Virus record (IMG/VR): IMGVR_UViG_2880389630_000005
Direction: 5' to 3' (one strand)
DNA length: 64,000 nt
Source of the DNA: a virus
Lineage: Duplodnaviria; Heunggongvirae; Uroviricota; Caudoviricetes
In this document: positions 10,180-35,336 of the stretch, one piece after another
Layout: the number at the start of each line of letters is the position of its first letter
Position numbering within the stretch: the first letter of the stretch is position 1
The notes under the pieces: generated by a model
Database searches by the model: none
Told to the model about the DNA's origin: nothing
What the model saw: the letters and a program-made list of their open reading frames with translations, nothing else
Program-made: the position numbers and the translations under genes

Positions 10180-11528
10180 TGGGCTGGGCTGAAAACCTGC
10201 AAAACGCTTCCTTTCGTGGCGTGCAGTTTGAGGTGCTGAATACTGACGAACAAATCAGCCGCGACCATGCGGTCTATGAATACCCGTTTGTTGACGGGGC
10301 GGATTTGCACGACCTCGGACGCAAGGCGCGACCGTTCCGCATGACGGCGTTCCTGTGGGGCGATGACTATGAATATAAACTCGGGAAACTGACCGCCGCC
10401 CTGGATGAAGGCGGCGATGGTGAACTGATTCATCCGGTTTATGGCTCTGTGCCGTCGGTGATTGTGACCGGCTACAACATCCGCCATGACGCAGAAAGCC
10501 CGGACAGCTGCACCATTGACATGAGTTTTCTGGAAAACCGCACCGGTAGCGCGTTGTTCAGCACCCCGTTACCGGAGCTGTTCGCGCAACAGTTGTTTGA
10601 TGAACTGGACACTTTACAGGCGCGGTTAAGTGATTTTTTTGATGCCGTTACTGCACCTTTAAATACCGTTAACGGCATGATTAAAAAAGCCCAGACAGTG
10701 CGTGCCACACTGGTGAATACCCTGCTGTCGTTCAAAAGTGATTTTGTCTCCACTGTCGATAATATCGTGTCACTGGCAGGCGAACCCGGAAAATTTATCA
10801 ATGAACTGGCAGAGGTGCTGGAAATCCACACATCAGATGTCGGGCAACCGGTGCAGGTTCTGCAACGTGTTGATTCTGCCACCCGGACCGGGTTGGCAGG
10901 AGAGACGACCGTCGCCAGTTCTGCGACAGTGATGAACTGCTGGAATAAGGTCATCACTGATATGGATGAATTTGTTGCGTTGCCTGTTACCCTGGTCAGT
11001 GGCGATAAAGTAGCGGAGGTGGCACTTCCTGCGGATGCCTCGCCAGACGATGTGCAGGATGTGAAAGCAGTTTACGCAACACAGGCCGCATCTGAACTGG
11101 CCAGTGTTGCAATGGCGATACTGGTTGATGATGCGCAGTCAGAACAGCTTATACCGGCGGATATCGGGCGACTGGTCGGGGATGTGCGCACCCGCTTACA
11201 GGCTGCCATCACGCTGTTCCGTGAACGCTATGAAGGCGAACGCGAACGGATAACCGAAACCGCATCACCGCTGGGGCTGATGTACCCGGAAATCATTCAG
11301 AGCATGAAAAACGTGGCGGCAACCGTGCAGGATGTCGGCCTGCTGGTTCTGTCACGCCGCCCACCGCTGACGCAGAAACAGGTGCAGGCGGACAGCTGTC
11401 TGCTGTTGCTGGCGTGGCAGTGGTACGGCGATTACAGTCGTGCGGCAGAACTGCAACGCCTGAACCCGCAGTTACGTGACCCGAACAACATAACCGCCGG
11501 GGTGGTAATTAATGCCTACGCCAAATAA
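10179..11528 (+). CDS. DNA circularization protein (Mu N-like)
   Basis: 449 aa; N-terminal ASFRGVQFEV...GR...F motif matches the DNA circularization N-domain pattern. Confidence 0.7.
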   Translation: MGWAENLQNASFRGVQFEVLNTDEQISRDHAVYEYPFVDGADLHDLGRKARPFRMTAFLWGDDYEYKLGKLTAALDEGGDGELIHPVYGSVPSVIVTGYNIRHDAESPDSCTIDMSFLENRTGSALFSTPLPELFAQQLFDELDTLQARLSDFFDAVTAPLNTVNGMIKKAQTVRATLVNTLLSFKSDFVSTVDNIVSLAGEPGKFINELAEVLEIHTSDVGQPVQVLQRVDSATRTGLAGETTVASSATVMNCWNKVITDMDEFVALPVTLVSGDKVAEVALPADASPDDVQDVKAVYATQAASELASVAMAILVDDAQSEQLIPADIGRLVGDVRTRLQAAITLFRERYEGERERITETASPLGLMYPEIIQSMKNVAATVQDVGLLVLSRRPPLTQKQVQADSCLLLLAWQWYGDYSRAAELQRLNPQLRDPNNITAGVVINAYAK

Positions 11529-12723
11529 CGAAGACAAAATTAGCCTGGTCATTGCCGGAAGGTCGCATTCTGACTGGAGCAGTTATCGTATTGACAGCGA
11601 TTTCCTGAAAGCTGCCGACGGCTGGCAGCTTCAGCTGGGGCTGCCTGAAAAGGTGTTCCCGGCGGATATCGTCCGGGGCGCACAAATCCGGTTGCAGGTG
11701 GGAGATGAAACGGTGCTCAGTGGGCGCATAGACAGCGTGCGCCGTAGTGTGTCCCGTCAGAGCTGCACGCTGGCCCTGTCCGGGCGTGATGATGCCGCCA
11801 TCCTGGTGGACTGTGCCGCGCCGGTGTTCAGCGCCAACCAGCTGACGCTGGACGAGGTCATCGACAGGATAGTCAGACCACTGGGGATACAGCGCATCCG
11901 TATACAGGCGTCCGGTGTGTCACGTAATGACAAAGTTGTTATTGAGCCGGGGATGCGTGCGTGGGATGCACTGGCCAAAGCTGCCGCCGGTCGCGGCTTA
12001 TGGCCGTGGTTTGAGCCTGACGGGACGCTGGTTGTGGGTGGCCCTGACTACACCACCACGCCGGTGGATACGCTGATTCTGAAGCTGAACGGCACCGGGA
12101 ACAACGTGATGGAGCTGGACGATACCCGATCCATTAACGGCTGTTTCTCCGAACTGACGGTGCTGGCCCAGAGCCACGCCCGCCGCGCAGACAGCAAGAA
12201 ACAGGTGGCCGTGGTGCCGCTGGATATCTGGAACGAGGACGGCAGCGTGCGCACATTATCCGGGCAGGACAGCGGTAATACGGACTGTGGTCAGACAGGC
12301 ATTCATAACATGAAAGCCGTGGCCACCGACCCCACCGTGGATTATTACCGCCCGCAGATTATCACCCAGGGCGACACCAGCAATCTGGAGCAGGTGAGCT
12401 GGCGCGCAAAAAAAATGATGAGTGATGCCCGCCTGTCGGGGCTGGATATCGTCGCACTGGTTGCAGGTCATCGCACGGCAGATGGTGTTCTGTGGCAGCC
12501 CGGCCAGCGGGTGCGGATTGTCAGCGAACTCCACGGCATTGATGCCATCTTTTTCCTGATGGGGCGTGAGTTCAGCGGAGGCCGGAACGGGCAGACAACC
12601 CGGCTTCGCTTTAAGGAGGACGGCGTGTGGATACCTGACGCCTTCCCGCGCGAGAAGAAACGCCATCACCGCAGGGGCAAAAAGAAAAAAGAGGTCGCCA
12701 TTGTTAAGGTCTGGGAGAAATGA
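11512..12723 (+). CDS. baseplate hub protein (Mu P/gp44-like)
   Basis: 403 aa; conserved order after N-like gene. Confidence 0.6.
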   Translation: MPTPNNEDKISLVIAGRSHSDWSSYRIDSDFLKAADGWQLQLGLPEKVFPADIVRGAQIRLQVGDETVLSGRIDSVRRSVSRQSCTLALSGRDDAAILVDCAAPVFSANQLTLDEVIDRIVRPLGIQRIRIQASGVSRNDKVVIEPGMRAWDALAKAAAGRGLWPWFEPDGTLVVGGPDYTTTPVDTLILKLNGTGNNVMELDDTRSINGCFSELTVLAQSHARRADSKKQVAVVPLDIWNEDGSVRTLSGQDSGNTDCGQTGIHNMKAVATDPTVDYYRPQIITQGDTSNLEQVSWRAKKMMSDARLSGLDIVALVAGHRTADGVLWQPGQRVRIVSELHGIDAIFFLMGREFSGGRNGQTTRLRFKEDGVWIPDAFPREKKRHHRRGKKKKEVAIVKVWEK

Positions 12724-13373
12724 TGTGGGACAAGGTTAATCAGCGCGTACAGCAGGCACTGGCCGCCGTTCGCCAGGCATTCAGGGTGGTGATCGGTACG
12801 GTGGACAGTTCGACCAAAGTACAGCTGCTTCAGCTGAACGGGCTGGCAGGCGAACAGCTGGATGGTGCGGAGTATTTTCAGCATTACGGCCTCACCACAT
12901 CCCCGCCGCCCGGCTCAATGGGTATTGCCGTTCCGCTGAATGGCAATACCTCCCATACCGTCATCGTGGCCACAGAGCACGGCGCATATCGCCTGACGGA
13001 ACTGAAACCCGGCGAGGTGGCCCTGTATACCGACGAAGGCGCGAAAATCGTATTGAAGCGCGGGCGGATTATTGAAACAGAATGTGACGTTTACCGGGTG
13101 AAATGCAAACGCTATGAGGTTGAGGCAGAGGAGAACGCCGCATTCACGACACCGTTACTGACGGCCAGCGATAAGCTGACGGTGGAAGGTAAAATCACCG
13201 GCAACGGTGGCATGGCCATCCGTGGCGGCAAGGAATACGCCGCCACTTTTGAAGGCAACATCAACCATGTGGGTGGTGTGCTTACCTCCGTTGATGTCAC
13301 CATTAATGGCATTAAAATCGGAACACACAAACACCCAACCCCACACGGCATGTCTGACACGCCGGTTAATTAA
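12720..13373 (+). CDS. baseplate spike/assembly protein (Mu gp45-like)
   Basis: 217 aa; overlapping start (ATGA); position in baseplate cluster. Confidence 0.6.
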   Translation: MMWDKVNQRVQQALAAVRQAFRVVIGTVDSSTKVQLLQLNGLAGEQLDGAEYFQHYGLTTSPPPGSMGIAVPLNGNTSHTVIVATEHGAYRLTELKPGEVALYTDEGAKIVLKRGRIIETECDVYRVKCKRYEVEAEENAAFTTPLLTASDKLTVEGKITGNGGMAIRGGKEYAATFEGNINHVGGVLTSVDVTINGIKIGTHKHPTPHGMSDTPVN

Positions 13374-13426
13374 GTGCTGAACACCCTCACCTGATTCTGA
13401 CCTGTCCATGCTGCCAGACTGGCGGC

Positions 13427-13777
13427 ATGGACCAGACGATTTCACCTGCAACCGGCGACTACGAACGCCGCCGGATTTATACACTCCATAACGCGGTTTA
13501 TCTGCGACTGGCGACACCGCTTGGCAGTTACTGGGCGGATGCGTTGCTGGGGTCACGCCTGCACGAACTGAAGCGGGAAAAAGACGTTTCCCGTGTTCAC
13601 AGGCTGGCGGCGCAGTATGCCAGCCAGGCACTTCAGCCCCTGCTTGATGACGGGCGGGCAAAATCCATTACTGTTGACACGAAACCGGGTCAGCGCGGCT
13701 GGCTGTTGCTGTTAATCACCGTCACGGATAACGCGGGCACACCGCAGACATTTGAACACCCTGTGAGGATTATGTAA
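13427..13777 (+). CDS. baseplate protein (Mu gp46-like)
   Basis: 116 aa small baseplate component upstream of J-like gene. Confidence 0.55.
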   Translation: MDQTISPATGDYERRRIYTLHNAVYLRLATPLGSYWADALLGSRLHELKREKDVSRVHRLAAQYASQALQPLLDDGRAKSITVDTKPGQRGWLLLLITVTDNAGTPQTFEHPVRIM

Positions 13778-14856
13778 TGCCGTTTCCTGTTCCGGGCGTT
13801 GCTGAAAACACAGAACGCCAGCTACGTGATATCGCTAACGCCCTGCCGGGAGAAACCATCGACACCAGCGCTGACAGCGATTACCGCATTCGTGCAAATG
13901 CCGTATCCGGTGTGGCTGACGGGCTTTATATGCATCAGGGGTGGATACTCCGTCAGGTGTTTCCTGACACGGCAGACCCTGAATATCTGGAGCTGCACTG
14001 CCGCACGCGCAATGTTTTTCGTAAAAAAGCGACCGCCTCATCCGGTCCGGTGGTGATTACCGGCACTCCCGGTAAGACACTGCCAGCCGGTGCGGAAATT
14101 CGTGGTGAAGGTGTCAGCGTGTCCACCACAGCAGACTGCACCATCGGCCACGAAGGCAGCGCAGAGGTGACGGTAAAAAGCACTGCCACGGGGGCACTGA
14201 CGAATGCATCCACGACGCAGACGGCAACGCTGGTCAGTCCGCCGGAAGGCATCAACAGCACGGTGACGATTAAATCCCTGACCGGTGGAACAGACAGGGA
14301 AAGCAACGCCGACCTGCTGGCGCGTTATCTGGACATTCTGCGCAGGCCGCCCGCTGGCGGTAATAAATATGATTACAAACGCTGGGCGCTGGAAGTGGAT
14401 GGCGTTACCTCGGCATATGTGGAGCCATTACGTCGTGGACTGGGGACGGTTGATGTGGCCATTACGTCAGCCAATGACCTTCCCTCGCAGGAACTGATTA
14501 ATGCCGTGCTGGCACATATTGAGGAAGTCTGCCCGGTCACAGCAAAGGACACGATGGTACTGGCCCCGACGAAAAAAGCCGTTGATTTCGTTGTCCGGGT
14601 AAAAACCAGCGGCCTGACCGTTGAGCAGATAAAACCACAGATAACTGAAGTTATCACGGATTTTATGAACCGACTGGAGCCGGGGCAGGAATTAATTATT
14701 TCACAACTGGAAACTCAGATTTCATTAATTTCTGGCGTCAGTGACCGGCGGATTATTATGCCGTCAGATAATGTAAAAGCAGTTGTCAATGAATCCACAT
14801 GGGAGTGGCTGCGTCCGGGGAGTATTGATATCCAGCCATTTCCCCGGGAGAGTTAA
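13777..14856 (+). CDS. baseplate J-like wedge protein (Mu gp47-like)
   Basis: 359 aa; position and size of baseplate J family. Confidence 0.65.
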   Translation: MPFPVPGVAENTERQLRDIANALPGETIDTSADSDYRIRANAVSGVADGLYMHQGWILRQVFPDTADPEYLELHCRTRNVFRKKATASSGPVVITGTPGKTLPAGAEIRGEGVSVSTTADCTIGHEGSAEVTVKSTATGALTNASTTQTATLVSPPEGINSTVTIKSLTGGTDRESNADLLARYLDILRRPPAGGNKYDYKRWALEVDGVTSAYVEPLRRGLGTVDVAITSANDLPSQELINAVLAHIEEVCPVTAKDTMVLAPTKKAVDFVVRVKTSGLTVEQIKPQITEVITDFMNRLEPGQELIISQLETQISLISGVSDRRIIMPSDNVKAVVNESTWEWLRPGSIDIQPFPRES

Positions 14857-14859
14857 TAC

Positions 14860-15432
14860 ATGAATACGGTTGATTTATTTCGTGCCATGTTACCACCGGT
14901 CAGCTATGACCCGAACGGGAAATATATTTCAACAGAACTGAACGCAGAAGCAGCCATTATGGATGAAGTAAAAGCGTCAGCTGCACGAGTGCTTGCATCT
15001 GTCACACCATTTTACGCATCCATGACACTGTCTGACTGGGAACGAGTGTATGAAGTAATACCCCGCGATGGTGCCACACAGCAGGAACGCCGAGAAAATA
15101 TTCTTATAAAGATGGCTGCAACTGGTGGGTTATCTATCCCTTATTTTAAACAACTTGCAGCCAGCCTCGGGTACACCATAACAATTACTGAACTCCATCC
15201 ATTTAGAACGGGGGTAAACCGATGTGGTGATCGTCTCTATATAACAGATGCCCGATGGATTTGGCAGGTTAATGTCACAGGAAGCAAAACGCCAGCTTAC
15301 AGATTCAGAACCGGAGTATCTGCTGCCGGGGAACCGTTACTTTCCTTTGGTGCCCCTGTACTGGAAGAAACATTTAAAGAGCTTAAACCCGCTTTTACTT
15401 ATTGCCATTTCACATATAAGGAGGAGCAGTAA
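14860..15432 (+). CDS. tail protein (Mu gp48-like)
   Basis: 190 aa between baseplate J-like gene and tail fiber. Confidence 0.55.
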
Positions 15433-17810
15433 TGCAAAATCTGATGCCCCCGATAAATACACCGGATCAATTGTTTCATGATGGTGACCCCACTCAGGGG
15501 ATAGAAGGAACCATCGTAACTGCTGATTATTTAAACAATCAGCAGGGGGCAATCCGTGATTTACAGCAGGAACTCCTTAATGTTCTTGGTAGTGTACATA
15601 TTCAACCTGCCCCCCAAAAAACGGATCAGCTACTTACCGCGCTTCGTGCGCTGCTGTTAAGCCGCAAGAATCCGTTTGGCGATATCAAATCGGATGGCAC
15701 GGTAGAACGCGCTCTTGAAAATCTGGGGTTACAGGATGTAAAAGCTGGTTCATTGAACAATCTGTACACTAACCATTCCCGTAGTGTCTTAATGGAATTG
15801 CCGTTATTATTCCCGGACTACGATACGGTGCTGGCTGCTCAGTCTGGTGCGGAATATATGTATCCACAGGGATTTGTGGTGACAGGAGAAAAAATCTATC
15901 TGAGTTATACCGTTGAGCCAAAGCAGACACGGAACGTTATAGTTCAGTACACAACATCCGGCGAATATGAGGGATATTATTATGTCGATAATGGAGGTCG
16001 TGGCGTTGTCAGCGAAGGCCTTGTGGTGACAACGGATTACGGTGGATTACGTTTGTTCATGTCAGGAGAAAATGGATTACTGAAACAGTTTTCGCTTGAT
16101 GGGGCAATTTCTGGTTCAGTATTGCCGTTAATTGATGAACATGATGTCGGTGTTTACAACCAGTTCAGCTATCGTAAAAACCGCTGGGTGGTTGAACAGT
16201 CAGCGCCGGAAGTGGGAGGCCTGATCACCCGCACAGTATTTGCGGTGTATGATTTTCAGTTTCGTCGGACAGGGACATTCACATTACCGTTGCATGATTC
16301 CGGATATATCACGGAAAGCACAGACAGCTATGCAAGACGCTTCACAAAACGTCAGGGAATTGCTGTGGGAGACGATTATATTGCCTGTTCTTATGGTGGC
16401 TATTTTAATACCGGGGCATCAGCCGGATTTAACCAGTTTCAGGGGGTTAAGGTCTTTTCTCCGGATGGAGTAAAGCAGCAGGAATCCATTCTTCATCCCC
16501 AAAAAATGATAGATGTGCTTACCAGGCAGGGTTTTACACCTTCGCGCATTGAGAACGAAGGAATTTGTATTTCTGACGACGGCGGCAGTATATATTCGCT
16601 TTATATCTTTCTGGAGCGTGGGTTACCACAGGCTTATCAGAAAGGAATTGTTCTGATGAAAGAGTTCAGTACTGGCAGAGATGCTATTGATTTTCGTCAG
16701 GCAGCCTGGTTGTACACGGGGTTTGATGTGTCTCATGCCAGTATTGGAACATTTCCCCGTAGTGCCCAGGGGTTGGTAAACCCGGTGTTGGGGACGGTAT
16801 TCACATCCCTGTCTGAAATTCTGGCATATATGCGTTCTGTGAGTCAGAAATGGTTTTGTCTGCATACAACCACGACACCGATTAAAGATCTGAGTGGAAA
16901 TGACATTCCTGCTGACAATTATGTGTTCATCAAGAATGCTAATAACCAGACATTCTATATAACGCAGGAGTCAGCTGAAGGTGGAATAAAATATAAAGCT
17001 GTCACTACAGACAGCGGAGAATATGGTTTTCAGCGACAAAGAGAGGCAATCTGGTCCAATGTTATCACCATCGCACAAAAGAGCGATGGTGAGGATCAGT
17101 TTAATCGTATTATCGCTGCCTCGAAAAGTGGTTCGGGTAAAAATCAGGATAAAATACTGGTAGTTGACCAACAGGCATCAGAGGGGAATAACACGCTGGT
17201 AATTGGCGGTGGTTCATCTGTGTTCAGGTCAGCGACAGTGATTGATTTTGCAACGAATCAGGATGCAAATGCCACAGGAGGAGAAAAGAGATGGCGCATA
17301 GATTCATCAGGAAATCTCCGCCCTTATACAGATAATACGTATTCGATCGGTTATGCCTCATGGCGACCCGCACAGGTTTATTCAGCTACGGGAAGTATCA
17401 GTACATCAGACCGGACTCATAAACAGGACGAAACAATTCTGTCGGATGCAGAAAAAAGGGTTGCCAGAAAGCTGCTCGGGTATATCTGTCGGTTCCGTTT
17501 CAGGGATGCAGTGTCCAGCAAAGGGAACGCAGCCAGATGGCATGTAGGAGTGATTGCTCAGGACGTACAGAAGGTCTTCTCCGAGGAAGGGCTGGACGCT
17601 TTTGATTACGGTATTTTGTGTCGTGATGAATATCCGGCGGAATATGAAGTGGTTTACGGGACTCGTATGGAGCTTGGTTCTGACGGACTCCTTACAATGG
17701 AAGAATACGATACCGGAGAGCGCAAGCTGGTCAGGGAGGCTGGTGAAATAATGTCTGTAAGGAATGATGAGCTGCATTATTTCATGCTGGCATCGCTGTC
17801 TGGCCAGTGA
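15432..17810 (+). CDS. tail fiber protein with C-terminal intramolecular chaperone domain
   Basis: 792 aa; conserved fiber N-terminus; C-terminal about 130 aa resemble the peptidase S74-type auto-cleaving chaperone domain. Confidence 0.7.
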
Positions 17811-17821
17811 ATAATATTAAT

Positions 17822-17846
17822 GTAAGGAGCGATATAAGCTCCTTAC
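17822..17846 (+). terminator. hairpin downstream of tail fiber gene
   Basis: GTAAGGAGC-N7-GCTCCTTAC inverted repeat just after stop; weak T-tract. Confidence 0.4.
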
Positions 17847-17926
17847 ATCATGCATTTTATGCTGCGATTATGCGTTCTCCTGTTGTTTGTTGCTGAGAGT
17901 GAAACACCGGAAACATAACTAATAAG

Positions 17927-17984
17927 TTAGCGCCCAATTCTGGGCTTTTTGGCTGAGATCTCCCCGCCCAGAATTGGGCGCTAA
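17927..17984. repeat. 19-bp perfect inverted repeat with 20-bp spacer
   Basis: TTAGCGCCCAATTCTGGGC ... GCCCAGAATTGGGCGCTAA; lies in the junction between Mu-like module and CP4-like genes. Confidence 0.6.
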
Positions 17985-18055
17985 TTAGCCCAGAAAAAAA
18001 CGCGAAGTTACACTGGTACCGTCAGCATCATGCTGACAGCAACTGGTATGAAAAC

Positions 18056-18583
18056 GTGTATGAGGACTTCAGGGCGGTCTGTGGCATTTTCGGAATTGAC
18101 CTCCGCCAGCGCGTTTTCCGGCTCAGCAACGGCAGGTTTATGGAAGAGGCGTGCATCTGGTTCAGCGGATTCTGCAGCCAGGGGGACGGAGCCTGTTTTG
18201 AAGGACGCTGGCACTGGCAGCCAGCAACAGCCAGAAGGCTCCGGGAGTATGCCACACAGGACCATGAACTCCATCGTATCGCGGATGCCCTGCAGGCGGT
18301 GCAGAAACGTAACTTCTGGCAACTGCAGGCTGAAATCCACCACCGGGGACGTTACTGCCATCCGTACAGCATGGATATCACTGTTACCCGGAACAGTCCG
18401 ACTGGTCAGGCTATGACAGCCGATGCGGAAGCCGCTGTCAGCGAAGCCCTGCGCGACCTGGCCTTCTGGTTGTACCGTCAGCTGGAAAACGAGTACGACA
18501 GGCTGACCTCTGATGCCGCTGTGGATGAGGCCCTTCTCATCAACGAATACACCTTCACCGAAGCCGGTCTGCGCGCCGGCTGA
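18056..18583 (+). CDS. hypothetical CP4-type prophage protein, possibly 5'-truncated
   Basis: 175 aa from a GTG; frame open upstream with no ATG; directly precedes the cbeA-like gene. Confidence 0.35.
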   Translation: MYEDFRAVCGIFGIDLRQRVFRLSNGRFMEEACIWFSGFCSQGDGACFEGRWHWQPATARRLREYATQDHELHRIADALQAVQKRNFWQLQAEIHHRGRYCHPYSMDITVTRNSPTGQAMTADAEAAVSEALRDLAFWLYRQLENEYDRLTSDAAVDEALLINEYTFTEAGLRAG

Positions 18584-18598
18584 CCTGAGGACTTTATC

Positions 18599-18967
18599 GT
18601 GTCAGACAAACTCCATGAGACAAATTATCCCGACGACCATAACGACCGCCTCTGGTGGGGACTGCCCTGCACCGTGACGCCCTGTTTCGGGGCACGTCTG
18701 GTGCAGGAGGGTAACCGGTTGCATTACCTTGCCGACCGCGCCGGTATCAGAGGCCTGTTCAGCGATGCAGATGCGTACCACCTGGACCAGGCCTTTCCGC
18801 TGCTGATGAAACAACTGGAACTCATGCTCACCAGCGGTGAACTGAATCCCCGCCATCAGCATACCGTCACGCTGTATGCAAAAGGGCTGACCTGCAAAGC
18901 CGATACCCTCAGCAGTTGTGGTTACGTTTATCTGGCTGTTTATCCGACGCCCGAAATGAAAAATTAA
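18599..18967 (+). CDS. cbeA: CbeA/YeeU-family antitoxin (type IV TA)
   Basis: 122 aa; near-identical to remembered YeeU sequence (WWGLPCTVTPCFGARLVQEGNRLHYLADRAG...). Confidence 0.85.
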   Translation: MSDKLHETNYPDDHNDRLWWGLPCTVTPCFGARLVQEGNRLHYLADRAGIRGLFSDADAYHLDQAFPLLMKQLELMLTSGELNPRHQHTVTLYAKGLTCKADTLSSCGYVYLAVYPTPEMKN

Positions 18968-19055
18968 CTCTCCAGAATAGCCTTCTGCTACGGCCTGGTG
19001 TTTTCACCACGCCACTTTTCCATTTTTATATCTGCATATCAGGAAAATCTTCAGT

Positions 19056-19430
19056 ATGAAAACATTACCTGTATTACCCGGGCAGGCGGCCAGTTCTCGC
19101 CCGTCTCCTGTTGAAATCTGGCAGATACTGCTGTCCCGACTGCTGGACCAGCACTATGGCCTCACACTGAATGACACACCGTTTGCCGATGAACGTGTGA
19201 TTGAGCAGCATATTGAGGCAGGCATTTCACTGTGTGATGCGGTGAACTTTCTCGTGGAAAAATACGCGCTGGTGCGTACCGACCAGCCGGGATTCAGCGC
19301 CTGTACCCGCTCTCAGTTAATAAACAGCATCGATATCCTCCGGGCTCGCAGGGCGACCGGCCTGATGACCAGCGACAATTACAGAACGGTAAATAACATT
19401 ACCCTGGGTAAGTATCCGGAGGCGAAATGA
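19056..19430 (+). CDS. cbtA: CbtA/YeeV-family toxin (type IV TA)
   Basis: 124 aa; near-identical to remembered YeeV sequence (MKTLPVLPGQAASSRPSPVEIWQILLSRLLDQHYGLTLNDTPFADERV...). Confidence 0.85.
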   Translation: MKTLPVLPGQAASSRPSPVEIWQILLSRLLDQHYGLTLNDTPFADERVIEQHIEAGISLCDAVNFLVEKYALVRTDQPGFSACTRSQLINSIDILRARRATGLMTSDNYRTVNNITLGKYPEAK

Positions 19431-19621
19431 TGACACTGGAAGCCGACAGCGTTAACGTACAGGCGCTGGATATGGGGCACATTGTCGTTGACATTGATGG
19501 TGTTAATATCACTGAACTGATTAATAAGGCCGCTGAAAACGGTTATTCACTCCGCGTGGTGGATGACCGTGACTCTACCGAAACACCGGCAACTTATGCC
19601 AGCCCTCACCAGTTGCTGTAA
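19427..19621 (+). CDS. yeeW: YeeW-like small protein
   Basis: 64 aa overlapping the cbtA stop, as in CP4-44. Confidence 0.7.
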   Translation: MMTLEADSVNVQALDMGHIVVDIDGVNITELINKAAENGYSLRVVDDRDSTETPATYASPHQLL

Positions 19622-20061
19622 GACAATGCAGTGATACAGGGTATAGTGCCATTAACCACAGAAACAGCACTGTTGTCCTGTATTAAGCAGGCAAGAGAAG
19701 ATGTCCTTACCCTGCGCCATCTGCAGCTTCTGCACCAGAACCGGTGAATCTCACTCAACAGGCTTCATTTCCCCTGACGCCAGCCTGAATACAGCTGGCG
19801 TTTTCATTTATAAACAGAAAGGAAAACCGATAATAATGGAATGGACGCCCCGACCATGAAGCAACGGTAGGATATTACTGATAAACCTTCCAGTGGAGGT
19901 GCGTTATGGCCGTTTTAACGATTAGCATTGACCTGACAAAAAATGAATTCCAAATCCACGGTCTGGGTAGGAACAGAAAAATCTAAGCTCAGAAAACGGA
20001 TTAAAGTAAGCGTCAACGGAGCACCGTATTGACGCTTATTTATTGGTGAGAACTACGTTCC

Positions 20062-20418
20062 ATGGCAGGAGTTCGTCAACACGGTTGGAGGGCCATTCCG
20101 GCAGTATGCTCAGAATATGGCGCAGATACGCTTCCGGATCGATACCGTTCAGACGGCAGGTGCCTGCTTTTCCGGCAACAAGCAGGAATCTCAGCGCTGA
20201 AGCAGGAATTAGAGGTAAAAACGCCCTACCGGGCCATGAATCACCCGGTCATTGGAGTAGTAACCAAAGCAGATTTAGCCAGCATGGAACAAATATCTTT
20301 GGTGACAAGTTGGTTACGGGAAGCTGGAGCGCACAACGTGTTAGTAACCAGTGCAGTTAATAACAATGGAGTTACAGAACTTTTTGCCTTGCTGCATACA
20401 GAAGAAGGCTGTTGTTAA
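20062..20418 (+). pseudogene. yoeF-like gene fragment (GTPase-like C-terminal remnant)
   Basis: 118-aa ORF with no clear RBS, in the position of CP4-44 pseudogene remnants between yeeW and yeeX. Confidence 0.3.
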
Positions 20419-20470
20419 TTTCGATTGGTTCTCAGATGAGAATGATGACGGTGATACACAGATAAGAATC

Positions 20471-20499
20471 AATGAGCAATGAGGGTTGCCGGGCAACCC
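20471..20499. terminator. perfect palindromic hairpin downstream of yeeX
   Basis: CAATGAGGGTTGCC/GGCAACCCTCATTG directly after the yeeX stop (- strand). Confidence 0.5.
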
Positions 20500-20518
20500 T
20501 CATTGAATAAAACGGGAA

Positions 20519-20848
20519 TTACTTCGCTTCGCCGTTTTTCATTTCGCCCATAGCTTTCAGCTTTTTGGAGATATCGCGGCGTTCTTTGGAGAGCTCGGCA
20601 TTTTTGATGATGTAATCGTCAACGCGATCTTCATAGTCACCTTTCATGCTGGCGATGATGCCCTGGATTGCTTCAACGCTCATCCCTGGCTTGATGTAAT
20701 CGCTCAGGTTGTCCAGCAACAGGACGCGCTTCTGGTTGTCACGGATCTTTTTCTCAACGTCCTGAATTTCACGTTGCAGTTTGTTCTTACGACGGAACAG
20801 ACGAACAAATTCCAGTACGTCCTGGAATGAAGGCTTGGTAGTTTCCAT
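20519..20848 (-). CDS. yeeX: UPF0265/DUF496 protein YeeX
   Basis: Starts at internal Met ([41 protein letters not shown]...), 109 aa; matches remembered YeeX. Confidence 0.85.
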
Positions 20849-21019
20849 TTTTATACCCCTGATAATGTGAGAGTCGGATTCGTTTAAGCAACCGCTATTC
20901 GTTAGGGCCAACATTACTCATAGCTGCCGCAGATGACAATGCTTTTATCCCTTTTCACTATCATACCCTTTATCCTTGCTGAATCGAAGCAGCAGCAAGA
21001 TGATTCTGAAGTTCAGGAA

Positions 21020-22078
21020 TTATTTGCGCAAGGCCCGGCAAATCAGATTCGATAGCAACTCAAGCTGATGTGCCGTTTCCATGTTCAGCCACACATAACC
21101 ATAGATTGGTGTTTCCAAGACTTTCAGGTCATGGTGGTTATCGAGCAACTGACGCAGCTCTTCCACAGCATCGTTCAATTTTTCCGTATTGGCAAAAACC
21201 GGCTGCGGATTACCTTCGTACAGCGCATGAACAAGGCTCAGCAGTATTTGCTGCATCATGTGCTGGGTATCACGAAGTTTTTGCGCGTTCAATAACACGA
21301 AATGGCTGGGGCGCGTGGCCCAGTATGCATTGATTTGCAACTCCAGCATACAAACCAGATTGCGATTAATGGTCTGGATACCTTCATATATCGATTTGGG
21401 AATACGGGTTTCTTTGCTGGCGGGCGCAATCAGCCCACGCATTTTCACGGCATCGGTCAGGAGTTTTTGTAGATGGCTTTCCAGACGTGGGCGTTCGAGT
21501 AAGTTCGGTGAGAATGCAGATTGATAGACCCGATTATACTCGGTCAGACTTTTCGCCAGTTGAATGCGCCAGTGGATGAACGCCCGTTGTGGCCAGATAC
21601 CGGTAAACAACATTGCCAGTAAAGAGCCGAGGATCACATCGCCGCTTCGCCATAACGCCGTATCAATTTCACCTGTCGGGGAACCCACAACAATTGCCAG
21701 CGTCACCCCAATCAATAATCCTTGATACGGTTTCTTGCCCAGCGCCAGCCAACCGCAAAGAAACATCGCCGCCGCGCACCAGACTAACATCAGCGGTAAC
21801 GAAATTAACTCCAGTTGCAGAGCGATAAGACCTAAAATCGAACCCAACACCGTACCGCCAATACGTTCGAAGGCACGAGGGACAACGTTCCCCCAGAACG
21901 AGATTGGCCCCATAATCACCACCATGGTGACCAGCGGCCAGGTGCTTTCCGGGATAGTAAACAGGCGGATAATGAGAAAAGTGAGCAGGAATGCCAGCGC
22001 GACCCGAGTACCATGCACAATGCGGTAATGGCGGTATACCCGGATTTCAAACGGGCTTAATGACTTATCGGCACGCAC
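21020..22078 (-). CDS. yeeA: inner membrane protein YeeA
   Basis: Multi-pass membrane protein; GTG start (VRADKSLSPFEIRVYRHYRIVHG...) gives about 352 aa. Confidence 0.75.
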   Translation of the reverse strand: MRADKSLSPFEIRVYRHYRIVHGTRVALAFLLTFLIIRLFTIPESTWPLVTMVVIMGPISFWGNVVPRAFERIGGTVLGSILGLIALQLELISLPLMLVWCAAAMFLCGWLALGKKPYQGLLIGVTLAIVVGSPTGEIDTALWRSGDVILGSLLAMLFTGIWPQRAFIHWRIQLAKSLTEYNRVYQSAFSPNLLERPRLESHLQKLLTDAVKMRGLIAPASKETRIPKSIYEGIQTINRNLVCMLELQINAYWATRPSHFVLLNAQKLRDTQHMMQQILLSLVHALYEGNPQPVFANTEKLNDAVEELRQLLDNHHDLKVLETPIYGYVWLNMETAHQLELLSNLICRALRK

Positions 22079-22275
22079 GCAGAAACTCCGTAATGAAGAT
22101 GAAAAGCGCTCATAACACATCTGTCGGCCAGAAGGCGCGCCTCTGAGTTATCCGACGGACATACCGGGAACAGTGTAATTTCCCGGCAGGAGCGAAAAAT
22201 TTGAAAGGCGCATCTTACTCTTTTCGCTTTCAAAAAAAGAGTGGTCTTCGCGTTAACACACCGCCCTGAGATGAA

Positions 22276-22749
22276 TTAGTGATGTTTTGGCTGCACCGCA
22301 ACATACATTTCGATATCCCAGTACCCATCTTCCGCGCCATTGTTCAAGTAAACCTCGAAGCAGGGCTTTGGTAACATTTCATAAGCACTGTCCTGCAAGA
22401 GGCTATTAAAGAACTGATACCAGGGTTTAGCAAAATCATCACCGACTACACGAGCCACCGCCACCGCATACTGACCACCTGAAATTTCTGTCAGAATGAC
22501 GCCCTCACTGTTTTCGGGGAGCGTAAAGTTATTCGGTACCGTCACGACGGTGTCGCAGCGTAATTTTTCGGCGGGTGTTTCATCTGGATTGTCGTAATAG
22601 ACAGCAACCCACTCCTTCGGCACAATATTTTTGCTATCTATCCACATCATCAACTGCTCAAAACCTTTCTTTACCATCTGCTCCCACGGGCCAACAAGAT
22701 GGAAACCTGCAACGGTACGTTTATCTTCCTGCTTAATCTCGTAGTTCAT
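22276..22749 (-). CDS. sbmC: DNA gyrase inhibitor SbmC (GyrI)
   Basis: 157 aa; matches remembered SbmC; LexA box upstream. Confidence 0.9.
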
Positions 22750-22765
22750 GACGCCTCCACTAACA

Positions 22766-22781
22766 CTGTTTTTATATACAG
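22766..22781. promoter_or_regulatory. LexA (SOS) box upstream of sbmC
   Basis: CTGTTTTTATATACAG fits CTGT-N8-ACAG, about 20 bp upstream of sbmC start. Confidence 0.6.
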
Positions 22782-22867
22782 TATAGTTGCAATATTAAAA
22801 CCACAAGGAATGAGTGTTGATTATGCGAGCAGACTCGCACTCCTGCCAGTCTGCTGCAAAAGAAAGG

Positions 22868-24040
22868 TCAGGCCTTATGGTGGAAATAATCACTCAGGCG
22901 GGAAAACATGCTGCCTTCCCCGACAGATTCCAGGGTAACCAGCGGCCAGTGCGCCACCTGTTTATCACGGTCGTAAAGTTCAATTTCCCCTACCCGCTGA
23001 TGGGCGCTAATTGGCGCGGTGAGTTCTTTACCATCAAGGGTATATTTGGCTTTGATATGTGGAATTTCGGCTTTCGGTAGCACCATCCAGAACTCTTGTT
23101 CCGTTCCCAGGGCGATATTTTCTTTATCACCATACCAGATGCGTTCCGTACCGACCTTTTTCCCACGGTGCAAAATTTGCACCGTAGTAAAGTTTTGTTG
23201 CCCCCAACGCAGTAATTTTCTTGCCTCTTCCTCACGACCTTTTGCGCTGTCAGCCCCCATTACCACTGCAATGAGGCGACGCTGCCCGTCTACAGCCGAA
23301 GCAATAAGATTAAACCCGGCACCAGAAGTATGGCCCGTTTTCAGGCCGTCAACATTCATGGTTTTATCCCACAATAACCCGTTACGGTTTTGCTGGGTGA
23401 TACCGTTCCAGGTGAGGCTTTTCTCACTGTACATATGATAAAACTCGGGCTCGCCGTGGATGATAGCGCGAGAAAGCACGGCTAAATCATAAGCCGAGCT
23501 ATGCTGGCCAGGTGCATCCAGACCATGCACTGTTTCAAAATGCGTATCCTTGAGATGCAGCTTCTCGGCATAGTTGTTCATCATTTCAACAAACTGCCGT
23601 TGCCCACCGGCAATATAGTCAGCCAGAGCAACACAAGCGTCATTTCCGGAATCCACAATTAAACCACGGCTTAAATCACGTACCGATACGCGATCGCCCT
23701 CTTTCAAAAACATCAGTGAAGAACCGACAAACACCGGATTATCTTTCGCCCACGCATCACGCCCCACGGTGACAATATCGTCTGGCGTAATGCGATGACT
23801 ATCGATAGCGCGATCCACGACATAGCCCGTCATCAGCTTTGTCAGGCTGGCGGGATTGCGCTGTTGATGCTCATTACCCGCGGTGAGAATCTGACCGGTG
23901 GTGTAATCCATCAATACCCAGGACCCGGCATGAATCTCTGGAGGCTGAGGTGAAAAAGGAATGTTTTCCGCCGCAAAACCAGACGATAAATTAAAAACGA
24001 ACAAAGAAGCAGCAATAATAAGACGGCGTTTCAACAGCAA
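22868..24040 (-). CDS. dacD: D-alanyl-D-alanine carboxypeptidase DacD (PBP6b)
   Basis: 390 aa with signal peptide; SxxK (SLTK), SGN and KTG motifs; matches remembered DacD. Confidence 0.9.
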   Translation of the reverse strand: MLLKRRLIIAASLFVFNLSSGFAAENIPFSPQPPEIHAGSWVLMDYTTGQILTAGNEHQQRNPASLTKLMTGYVVDRAIDSHRITPDDIVTVGRDAWAKDNPVFVGSSLMFLKEGDRVSVRDLSRGLIVDSGNDACVALADYIAGGQRQFVEMMNNYAEKLHLKDTHFETVHGLDAPGQHSSAYDLAVLSRAIIHGEPEFYHMYSEKSLTWNGITQQNRNGLLWDKTMNVDGLKTGHTSGAGFNLIASAVDGQRRLIAVVMGADSAKGREEEARKLLRWGQQNFTTVQILHRGKKVGTERIWYGDKENIALGTEQEFWMVLPKAEIPHIKAKYTLDGKELTAPISAHQRVGEIELYDRDKQVAHWPLVTLESVGEGSMFSRLSDYFHHKA

Positions 24041-24827
24041 ACCCTCAGGTGTTTCAAATAGCTGTTCTTTTTACGGAAATACTTATGAACTGGCTGGAAT
24101 AAAGTGCAAGAAAATGTGACTACTATCTCATTTTTATCTGACATGATCTGTTGCCACTCGCTGCCAAATTGTCGCGCTAAAGCTGATTAGCACGGTGATA
24201 TTTGATACTCTGGCAGACAGCAGAAATAACGGATTTAACCTAATGATGAATGACGGTAAGCAACAATCTACCTTTTTGTTTCACGATTACGCGCAACACC
24301 CCTGAGAACCGCCATGAACAAGGGTTTCATGATTTGTGATTTTAGTTTGGTACGCAATTTGGTACACAACACAATTTTCACTTCAGCGGGTAGTCATCAA
24401 ACTCACCATAACGAGCATCGTTGATGATGTATGTGATCACCACAAATATCACATCTGGACTAGTTCCGTCTTCATGCGCAGGTATTTGTTCACGCCTCCC
24501 TTTCTGCAAATCCTAAAGATGAGATTTTGGGGTTTTGGGATATCTTTTTATCCTCAGTTCTCTATCCATTCTACAAAGCAGTAATGAACCATCACCGTGT
24601 GATAGTGAGGCATCCGCTACGTTAAGCGCAGAGAAATGATGCAGTGGTGGTCGGACTGGATTGATGAAAAGGTGTAGCAACCAACATTGCTATATCTCAG
24701 ATAGCACAAAGCCTTGCAATCCAGTGCAAAGCTTTGTGTGTCTCAGTTTTTATAAATTCTTAAGCAAGAATTATAGTTATAACTATTATGTAAATTTTAT
24801 GATATATATTGTATTTAAATGCTGGTT

Positions 24828-26909
24828 TTACTTATTAACCCAACCTGTAGCATTTGTGTTGCTTTCCTTTATATAAAGTACTGTATTTCCACCTCCATCA
24901 GAACGAGTGTAAATAGAACCAACTGGTGCTCCAACTCCGCTAGATGTTGGGTTGCCTTCTTGCCCAAATATCACAAGTGAGCTTTTATCTGTAGCTTGAT
25001 TATTCTGTGTGGCTGATGTTCCAAATGAAACATTCCCTATAAATGACACGCTCTTACAGCTTGATGTAGCAAATATACCAACTGATGGTTTATTATTTGC
25101 AACGCCATCACGAATTTGATTTGAACTAACAATTACATTTTCTGCACCAGAGTCAATTCGTATGCCATTATGGTTATTATCTGCGGTAGAAACCCCAACT
25201 ATAATGTTTGATTGAATAGTAACATTTGAATATTTACCATTAATATGAATCCCATGCAGGGAAATATTTCTAAAGATGTTGCTAGAAATTACAACATCAT
25301 GCGAAAAACCAGACCCTATAAATTCTTCTGCATTAGTTTCAGAAATCCATAAAGAACTTGATGTTCCTGAATCGTATTCATTATTAGAGATGATTGATTT
25401 GTTAATAAAATCACCTTTGAAAAAACCGATTCCGCCTCTTGCTGTGTTTCCAGTGACAGTTAGTCCTGAAACCCATCTTGCGTCTACTGCATATGATTGA
25501 GACTCTGTAATAAACATGGAATTGTTGGATATTACGATATCTTCATGAAATGCATCTGATGTATCTGTATATGGATATGTAGGTGCAGCCAGAAGAATCG
25601 GGGATCTAACGCCTTCAAAATAATTGCCAACAATGCGCCCCCTCCTTGCCCCCTGTGGTTTTGATGATGATGGGAATGGGGTTACATGAACTCCTCGCGC
25701 GGTACTGTTATAGAAAGAGCATCCGCTAACCACCCAATCATACCAGTTGAAAACCCTTACCCCGGCAAAGAGCATTCCATCGAACCTGCAGTTTATGACC
25801 CTTATATTTTTGTCCTGATTCCCATATGAATTAGCATGGTTCCCAACCCCCACCCCCCACGCCCCAAACCCAGTGGTGGTATTTTGTGGATTTGAACCAA
25901 AATAACAGTTATCAACAAGAACATTGATGTTTGGGTAATAATCGCCAAGAGATTCAATCCCCGGATCTAACTGGATCGCTTCTGAATAATTTCGGTTGGA
26001 AAGTGGTTTGAAGCCAAGAAACTTACAGTCTCTTATAATCACCCCTTGCCCGTCAGCAATATCTACAGCATGAAAATCGACTACATCAAGAAATGTTACT
26101 CCAACAATAGAAAGATTTCTTGGTGAGGAGGCTGCAATGATGTCAAAAGGATCTGTAGGGTGGTCTTGTCCTCCTCCATCTAGTATTCCGCCTGTTATTT
26201 TAATGTTAGTGCCAGTATTAGGGCTTATTCTCAGCATGACGTCATTAGAAAAATTACGTTTAATGGTTACGCCATCAGTCATCTTTAGGTGAGTATTTGA
26301 TTTTATTTGCAACTCAGAAAGCAAAGTATATATGCCTGGTAGTGAAAACTGTAGTGTACCTCCTCCAATGCTATATATTGCATCTAGCGCAAATTGCAGA
26401 GCTACTTTATTGTCAGCATTCGATGGATGAGCACCGAAGTCAAGAACATCAATGATTTGTTGGTTCTTTTGGTGTTGAGTTTGATTTGCTGCTCCGGGGA
26501 ATGGTTGTTTCACCGACACTAATTCATCCCCATCACCATCATCAAAGGATGCCAACCTCTTCTGAAACTGATCAGGGTCATACTTCAGCACATTAGGAAA
26601 ATAAAACTGCTGCGCACCATATGCATCATAAACAGCCATAGAATGGCCCTGTACAGTAACGAATTTGGCAATCTGTCCGTTATATACAGGGTAACCAGCA
26701 GCGTTAATGATGATTGGTTGCGAAACAGGAACGTGAGAACCATCTTCGTTCTCTACATAAACTTGAATCTGGTTTTCAGGATTTACCGGGTCAGTGTCAA
26801 TTTTACCGATATAAATTTTGCCATTGGCTACGGCTTTAAAAGAACGCGCCATAGTGAAGAGTTGCGAAGGCATACTCACTACAACATTGGCATTTATCGA
26901 ATCTGTCAT
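24828..26909 (-). CDS. P22-like tailspike protein
   Basis: 693 aa; N-terminal ~115 aa closely match the P22 gp9 head-binding domain ([22 protein letters not shown]...VLKYDPDQ); divergent beta-helix C-terminus. Confidence 0.85.
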
Positions 26910-33346: not shown

Positions 33347-34494
<1,148 letters not shown>

Positions 34495-35336
34495 CTCGGT
34501 GGCCAGTTTTTGTTGACCACTTCAGATTCTGCAATCTCTTGTCCTGCAATTCAGCAAGTTTTAAGGCATTAGTTTCATTTGCGATGAGTCTGTCGTATTT
34601 CTTGTCCTCTAATTCCATCCGACGAAGATTGACATTTTGTTGCGCAATATTGTTGCTTGCCCACCCTCTGGCATTTGTCATGTCATTATTACGGATTGTT
34701 TCGTTAATTCTTTGCTGCTCCTGCTGGCGACCAACCATCTTGTCCTGATAATCCAGCATTTTATCCGGACCAACAGCCCCTAGCGTCATAGTAGTCAGCA
34801 TGTGTGATAGCTGCTCTGGATTCTGGATACCTGTCTGAATCATCCAGTCAGCATTCGCCCCCACGCGATTTAACCTGTCCTTGTTGTCAGTAATGAATTT
34901 ACTGTAGGCTTCCGGTCCCTGAGAAAGAGCGACGTTAGCCCTCATGGCTAAATCGCCCATATCGTTGCGTTGCTGATCATTAAGACCGGAAAACGCCTGT
35001 TGTGCCTGTGCAACAAACGCTGGATTTTCCTGGGCAAACTTAAATAGTCCCGATGGATCACCAGAAGCCCATGCATCAGCGTGAACCTTATTGAACGCAC
35101 TAATAGCTTTCTGTTGCTGTTCCTGCTTATAAATATCAGCAACTCCAGCCAGACCACGTAACGCGGTCAGACCAACGTTATTTGCACCTGATCGAGCCAG
35201 TTCATTGTTTTCGCGGATCAGACCAAGCGTTGCGTTAATGTCGCTTGCCTTTGGCGCATTCTCGTTTTGCGCACCAATGCCAGCCAGAAAACCACCAGAA
35301 TTAATACCCTGTTGCCACGTAGCCATTGATTACCCC

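Follow-up and report, generated by a model that had tools for sequence, protein, structure and literature searches.

The window analysed here is the whole 64,000-nucleotide stretch of tailed-virus DNA held as IMG/VR record IMGVR_UViG_2880389630_000005. The region of interest lies where Mu-like tail genes give way to genes of a CP4-type island. The last phage gene encodes a tail fibre and, as the preliminary description had it, ends at 17810 in the ORF list. On the far side, an ORF of 175 aa can be read from a GTG at 18056, with its frame open upstream, and is followed by the type IV toxin-antitoxin pair cbeA and cbtA, both of which are intact (Table 1). Between the two lies a perfect 19-bp inverted repeat with a 20-nt spacer, and shuffling the window 20 times yielded no perfect inverted repeat of at least 14 bp within 40 nt. 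A search for the arm elsewhere in the window and in prophage-free reference loci returned no other copy.

Table 1. Features of the prophage right end and the adjoining island (positions are those of the window)
Feature	Position	Strand	Basis
Tail-fibre gene, 792 aa, last gene of the prophage	15432..17810	+	ORF list; Pfam
3' flank of the tail-fibre cassette	17811..17917	+	Common to stfP regions
Terminator-like hairpin (11-bp stem, 7-nt loop), then T-rich tail	17820..17848	Both strands score	-19.3 kcal/mol, z = -4.4
Family-conserved right end (attR), 95 bp	17918..18012	+	Alignments in 651/5426 genomes
Minimal conserved attR unit, 86 bp	17927-18012		Alignment of right-end variants
Left arm of the inverted repeat, read as R3-like site (TTAGCG-CCCAA-TTCTGGGC)	17927..17945	+	Core at +68..75 from terminus, inverted
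Right arm of the inverted repeat, read as R2-like site	17966..17984	-	Core at +40 from terminus, 22 bp from R1
R1-like site with terminal CA	17985..18012	-	Core GCCCAGAA at 17988-17995, +18..25 from terminus
CTGG, predicted right copy of the 4-bp target duplication	18013..18016		7/7 family insertions and empty-site sequence
3' remnant of the 214-aa gene (codons 26-214 and stop)	18013..18583	+	WP_000086752.1
cbeA	18599-18967	+	Pfam PF06154
cbtA	19056-19430	+	Pfam PF06755

Direct comparison with a Mu-like prophage of E. coli S13 and with the empty site in strain AREA_R485 placed the boundary between phage and host DNA at 18012/18013. Positions 1-18013 match the S13 prophage at 100% identity with 0 mismatches, and prophages of strains S13, R4 and AVS0151 are 100% identical to the window up to 18012/18013. 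From 18012 onward, the DNA is that of the CP4-44-type island of ST131 strains (100% identity), and 18012-42800 matches AREA_R485 at 99.98%. The latter strain holds the island gene uninterrupted, with an empty-site sequence of ...GCCCGCGA / CTGGTACC..., the slash marking the boundary. Its downstream order is also that of the window: cbeA, cbtA, yeeW, tmaR, yeeA, sbmC, dacD and a P22-like prophage with ISEc52. The phage DNA terminates as ...AAACGCGAAGTTACA, with its terminal CA at 18011-18012. Thus, the abrupt junction between phage and CP4-type genes is real, but its placement at 17810 does not hold; the 202 bp 3' of the fibre gene, inverted repeat included, are phage DNA. The repeat always travels with the phage and is absent from prophage-free strains, in which the ORF is longer (214 aa); the refuting outcome named in the preliminary description, a repeat conserved in strains lacking the prophage, is thus not what these strains show. 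The boundary falls inside a protein-coding gene and differs between all genomes. No integrase was found at it, a tRNA scan of 17000-25000 returned none, and the combination expected of an integrase-type boundary (an att site at a tRNA or conserved locus together with a tyrosine or serine integrase) is not present.

The same terminus occurs beside many other host sequences. With a query of 113 bp, an 86-95-bp relative of attR was detected in 651 of 5426 complete E. coli genomes. Among the 60 matches listed, 59 alignments stop at 18012 and one at 18011, while their starts fall at 17918 or 17927 (a few at 17919-17925); these matches lie within or adjoining many genes, including eutC, mhpT and fliH. 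The identical 792-aa fibre protein was encountered in ten assemblies with ten different host flanks, nine of them new and the tenth being the cirA site known from S13. The last 202 bp are identical across these loci, one copy being 1 bp off, and the flanks begin directly after ...GTTACA. With related copies included, the number of distinct host flanks beside the terminus rises to 22. Such a pattern is the expected product of a Mu-like phage transposing replicatively or conservatively.

The S13 element measures 35,818 bp and splits cirA, beginning TGTGGGG... and ending ...GTTACA. Its left side encodes a CI-type repressor, a Ner-like HTH protein, a 680-aa transposase with the domains HTH_Tnp_Mu_1, rve and Mu-transpos_C, and an AAA+ partner (further Pfam matches at this end: AAA_22, Phage_CI_repr and HTH_35). 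Next come Mor, lysis genes, terminase, portal, a Mu gpT-type head and a Mu-type tail and baseplate, with the fibre gene last. In the window, the gpT head subunit occupies 3025-3933, by identity to S13, and Pfam recognises Phage_Mu_Gp48; loci with the same genes add sheath, tape measure, DNA_circ_N, Gp45, GP46 and Baseplate_J. Complete copies of the window's phage are 35,816-35,818 bp long and share the same final 202 bp. Complete copies in general, identical and related, begin TGTGGGGTAG and end GTTACA, and further ones split eutC (in EPEC E2348/69), mhpT, fliH, a PAAR/Rhs toxin gene, ypdF and the capsid gene of another prophage.

On this evidence, 17811-18012 very probably represents attR, the right end of a Mu-like, DDE-transposing prophage of 35.8 kb, which entered the CP4-44-type island by transposition and interrupts a 214-aa gene there at codon 25/26. 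The elements share TG...CA termini, repeated end sites, many insertion sites, a short duplication of fixed length and Mu-type head and tail genes, all features of Mu-like transposable prophages. Those of Muvirus in the strict sense (a 5-bp duplication, gin and the G segment, com/mom, and MuA consensus sites) are absent. Their transposase, exemplified by WP_060589422.1, is 45% identical to that of Sp18, a prophage of E. coli O157:H7 Sakai, and about 21% identical to MuA over the core; among phage records, none reached 60% identity or more to it. The family is thus a common but uncharacterised group of E. coli transposable prophages. With its ends defined (TG...CA, an 86-bp attR and an attL of about 160 bp, three sites each), its members can be delimited exactly in many genomes.

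The preliminary description had found neither canonical TG...CA ends nor transposase sites and had suggested that the prophage might end here with unusual termini. The window does contain a genuine, family-conserved right terminus, but the termini themselves are canonical: the CA is in place, identical copies begin with TG, and the inverted repeat is part of a repeated end motif in a Mu-like layout. These sites were overlooked because their sequence differs from that of Mu. The repeat consists of two copies of a motif with the 8-mer core TTCTGGGC, and three motif copies occur at each prophage end. Counting inward from the left end, cores lie at +18, +92 and +142; from the right end, they lie at +18 and +40 in the same orientation and at +68..75 inverted. 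Of these right-end copies, the one at +40 forms the right arm of the repeat and the inverted one its left arm; the third copy (GCCCAGAA at 17988-17995) adjoins the terminal CA, at the same offset as the first core of the left end. A weaker T-N-G-Y-G block (TAGTG, TGCGC, TCGCG or TAGCG) stands 3-5 nt upstream of every core. Across the window, a 9-mer scan allowing one mismatch gave 22 matches against 14.9 expected, which is not significant alone; the signal of the motif lies in its clustering at the termini rather than in its count. The two termini of the E2348/69 copy account for six of the seven cores present in 43 kb.

Comparison of variants points to a site recognised by protein. The core is kept in all nine distinct right-end variants, and outer arm positions drift without compensation. 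In the variant right end L023, GCCCAGAA has become GTCCAGAA at all three sites, and the left end L041 carries the same G-to-A change at all three of its sites (the variant left-end pattern gave three matches, of which two, L039 and L040, are chance matches inside coding DNA). Coordinated change of dispersed copies is expected from co-evolution with a DNA-binding protein, and not from a hairpin. From this co-variation and the layout, we infer that the arms are R2- and R3-like transposase-binding sites, by analogy with Mu.

Each end of Mu carries three MuA sites (PMC3145075). When the same analysis was applied to the CGAAAR cores of Mu, they were located at +22, +127 and +167 from the left end and, from the right, at +22 and +44 in direct and +56 in inverted orientation. 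The two right ends are accordingly alike in their terminal CA, in three repeats within the last 80 bp or so, in direct R1 and R2 copies exactly 22 bp apart and in an inverted R3. Craigie et al. are said to have noted the inversion of Mu R3 in 1984, and it is also visible in the Mu sequence. Further likenesses are the three left-end sites, with L1 at the same offset as R1, random insertion and a short duplication. The family differs from Mu in its sites (TTCTGGGC rather than CGAAAR), its duplication (4 bp rather than 5 bp), its CI-type repressor and its distant transposase; moreover, Mu has the G segment with gin, and com/mom, between fibre gene and end, and the family has none of these. By analogy with Mu, transposase monomers would bind R1-R3 and the three matching left-end sites, with R1 at the terminus, R2 22 bp inward of it on that strand and R3 in inverted orientation, all within the last 86 bp. 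The bound transposase would then bring the two ends together, nick the DNA behind the terminal CA (18011-18012, where cleavage and joining are presumed to occur) and link the 3' ends to target positions that are staggered.

The stagger can be gauged from the target duplication. In all seven independent complete insertions (loci L002, L003, L016, L017, L018, L036 and L037), 4 bp are duplicated, the tetramers being CATT, CACT, ATTC, ATTG, AGTA, CGCT and ACTT. Empty sites in K-12, available for two insertions, showed that the T and the A at its edges are part of the element itself and confirmed simple insertion at cirA and eutC. The same procedure returned 5 bp (CCAGG) for Sp18. For Mu and B3, duplications of 5 bp and 6 bp, respectively, have been reported (PMC8705779), and the D3112-type phage Ab30 showed a 5-bp shift between orientations (PMC5977238). 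A literature search for the ends of this family, or for a 4-bp duplication in a Mu-like phage, found no description of either. A tentative proposal, to which we would give slightly less than even weight, is that the family cuts its target with a 4-bp stagger and uses a hitherto undescribed TTCTGGGC end motif in a Mu-like L1-L3/R1-R3 layout. If true and unreported, this would provide a natural variant for asking what sets the stagger in MuA-type transpososomes, and the 4-bp duplication would be useful for comparison with the structure of the Mu transpososome. In the small sample of 22 right-flank tetramers, a weak preference for C, A/T, T and G/C (12, 17, 13 and 16 of 22) was apparent; this C-W-T-S bias may represent a target preference.

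For the window's own insertion, the duplication is predicted to be CTGG, and the left half of the copy is predicted to be intact. The left junction would lie about 17.8 kb upstream of the window start. There, CTGG (18013-18016) would recur, and ...GCCCGCGACTGG would be joined to the left end TGTGGGGTAGTG...; the predicted left side, ...CACAGGAAAAAGCCCGCGACTGG / TGTGGGGTAGTGATCAATTCTGGGCGG..., would comprise yeeT, the first 77 bp of the island gene, CTGG and then the phage left end with its repressor and transposase genes. Scans of the genome and metagenome contig collections for this junction, with 0-2 extra bases, gave no match, and the corresponding fusion peptides (for a 4-bp and for a 5-bp duplication) were absent from the protein collection.

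Other explanations of the repeat and of the junction have to be weighed against transposition. The inverted repeat could act mainly as a hairpin, terminating or insulating transcription at the edge of the prophage or forming a DNA cruciform there. Indeed, the arms are predicted to form an RNA hairpin of -38.7 kcal/mol (z = -6.8), a terminator-like score on the outward strand was obtained for its inner segment GCCCAATTCTGGGC plus the TTTTT that follows, and 90.6% of cells pair across the nine family variants. This pairing is, however, accompanied by covariation at the level of shuffled controls (210 of 500 shuffles reach the observed value), and three pair positions are unpaired in four to six of the nine variants. 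The perfect 19 bp is a peculiarity of the window's lineage, the arms in E2348/69 having three mismatches, and the lone double change recurs in the third copy, which stands outside the hairpin. Moreover, the left end has three copies of the same core that all point one way and cannot pair into a hairpin, and no U-tract follows the full 19-bp stem. Rfam returned only matches far below the gathering score, all to miRNA-precursor hairpins, and the 19-bp repeat qualifies neither as an intrinsic terminator nor as a structured RNA. A mainly structural function is thus unlikely, even if the arms might, beside their role as sites, have a secondary one as an RNA or DNA structure or a weak outward terminator.

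For the junction itself, the preliminary description had offered a recombination or deletion scar as its other option: an illegitimate or homologous join would have removed tail-fibre assembly, invertase and mom genes together with the start of the island gene. The island ORF is truncated, the junction is common to no public genome searched, and Mu itself has gin and mom beyond its fibre genes, all of which would be in keeping with such a loss. Yet the position of the break is exactly that of the terminus found next to 22 different host flanks, and with a terminus so mobile, a deletion on the right side is excluded as the origin of the junction. Nor do full-length copies of this phage (35,816-35,818 bp) have tail-fibre assembly, gin or mom genes, and the host-side sequence runs on from the insertion point without loss; a scar is accordingly very improbable. 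The evidence for the junction comes from one assembly, and an artefact, such as a chimeric join of replicative-transposition or virion reads with host ends, deserves slightly less credence still. In its favour, no sequence among the 5426 complete E. coli genomes spanned 17000-19500 in a megablast search, an exact-pattern scan for the right junction in the genome and metagenome contig collections gave no match, and Mu-type phages make many transient junctions. Even so, reads of that kind would stem from genuine transposition at this terminus; both sides match real genomes, over 18 kb and 24.8 kb, and a faulty join that hit the phage CA with single-base precision would be unexpected. Apart from its 4-bp footprint, the locus is thus an ordinary junction between a transposable prophage and its host. 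Its annotation can be settled accordingly, with the prophage ending at 18012, the repeat forming part of the phage end and the 175-aa ORF being a gene fragment.

The genes that seemed to be missing after the fibre gene are normally absent from this phage. Neither the ORF list nor the S13 copy shows a tail-fibre assembly, invertase or mom gene there, as the preliminary description had observed. The fibre protein carries a C-terminal Peptidase_S74 intramolecular chaperone domain (residues 659-721; Pfam PF13884, E=1.3e-9), so a separate tail-fibre assembly gene is not needed. Positions 15624-17917, which take in the distal part of the fibre gene and 107 bp beyond it, are 99.7% identical to the stfP side-tail-fibre regions of unrelated prophages in ST131 strains, which indicates that the fibre cassette and its terminator-like hairpin were acquired by recombination; the conserved 95 bp of the phage end begin right at the mosaic joint, 17917/17918. 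Assembly genes do occur in family members equipped with a different fibre module (E2348/69 and STEC strains). Neither gin nor mom was found in the complete family copies examined; invertase and mom are features of Mu and Sp18 and not part of this family.

Among the other systems compared, the eutC prophage of EPEC E2348/69 (NC_011601, 2715935-2751670) belongs to the same family and has the same gene order. Its right end is 91.6% identical to that of the window, with the terminal 36 bp identical; the motif layout of its left end is shared as well, and its duplication is likewise 4 bp long (CACT). It differs in its tail-fibre module, in which fibre genes are accompanied by assembly genes and another such set is encoded on the opposite strand, and in its imperfect repeat. 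Sp18 is a Mu-like prophage that is packaged but not circularised (PMC2669165, PMC7430833). Like the family, it is an E. coli transposable prophage with TG...CA ends, in this case splitting sorM; unlike the family, it has retained the invertase and a mom-like gene, its end sequences are different, and its duplication is 5 bp long. Assignment of the family to the Sp18-like phages was considered and rejected, Sp18 being a different lineage with gin, mom and a 5-bp duplication. The B3/D3112-type Pseudomonas phages share the general strategy and the TG...CA ends but differ in the length of the duplication or shift (6 bp in B3, 5 bp in Ab30) and have transposases that are about 30% identical.

Some observations on related copies may be added. 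At L037 (NZ_CP082831, 2789000-2827000), the Mu-like phage has a copy lying within the major capsid/prohead protease region of another prophage; such a phage-in-phage arrangement has been reported for Sp18-like phages in STEC (PMC10132054). Two phage records, CP025907 (21638-21723) and KU052038 (8889-8970), contain an 86-bp relative of the right end that is 77-79% identical, inverted repeat included, and one of them carries a 'side tail fiber' annotation over it. These relatives may represent an unnoticed Mu-like end or insertion.

On the host side, truncation of the 175-aa ORF had rightly been suspected: the start and the first 25 codons were lost to the insertion, the intact form having 214 aa. 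In the intact gene product (WP_000086752.1), the N-terminus reads MSRIITTTVYTLHELSSTAQEKARD-WYRQHH...; W26 is the first residue left in the window copy, and no Pfam family was found for the 214-aa protein. The apparent start at 18056 is merely the first start-like codon in the leftover frame, that is, a mechanical reading. The promoter-proximal 73 bp of the gene, together with 2 bp of codon 25, would have been moved to the far side of the prophage. In its intact state, the gene sits between yeeT and cbeA, and the island is of the CP4-44 type, as indicated by the genes for the CbeA antitoxin and CbtA toxin by yeeT/yeeW and by the yeeA-sbmC-dacD locus. The gene was intact in all 23 contigs read via the neighbouring P22-like tailspike, so the empty site is the common state. 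This insertion adds to the cases in which a gene carried by one mobile element has been inactivated by a transposable phage.

Looking up the 175-aa version gave no match, and a 147-aa version was found only in frameshifted island copies without the phage. In six ST131 assemblies (L028-L033), the island gene is split into ORFs of 47 aa and 147 aa (four assemblies) or only the 147-aa ORF is called (the other two). This suggests that the island gene is decaying independently of the phage insertion.

The window holds a second prophage, which is P22-like and extends from 24292 to at least 42800, probably further, in the same arrangement as in AREA_R485. Its start lies 49 bp into sbcB, as judged against the ST131 strain 4/1-1, and its genes encode a tailspike (24831-26909, minus strand), an antirepressor, Arc/Mnt-type regulators, ejection proteins, portal and capsid. 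The gene for an ejection/DNA-transfer protein of this prophage is interrupted by the IS3-family element ISEc52 at about 33347-34516, the transposase of which is frameshifted in the RefSeq annotation of AREA_R485.
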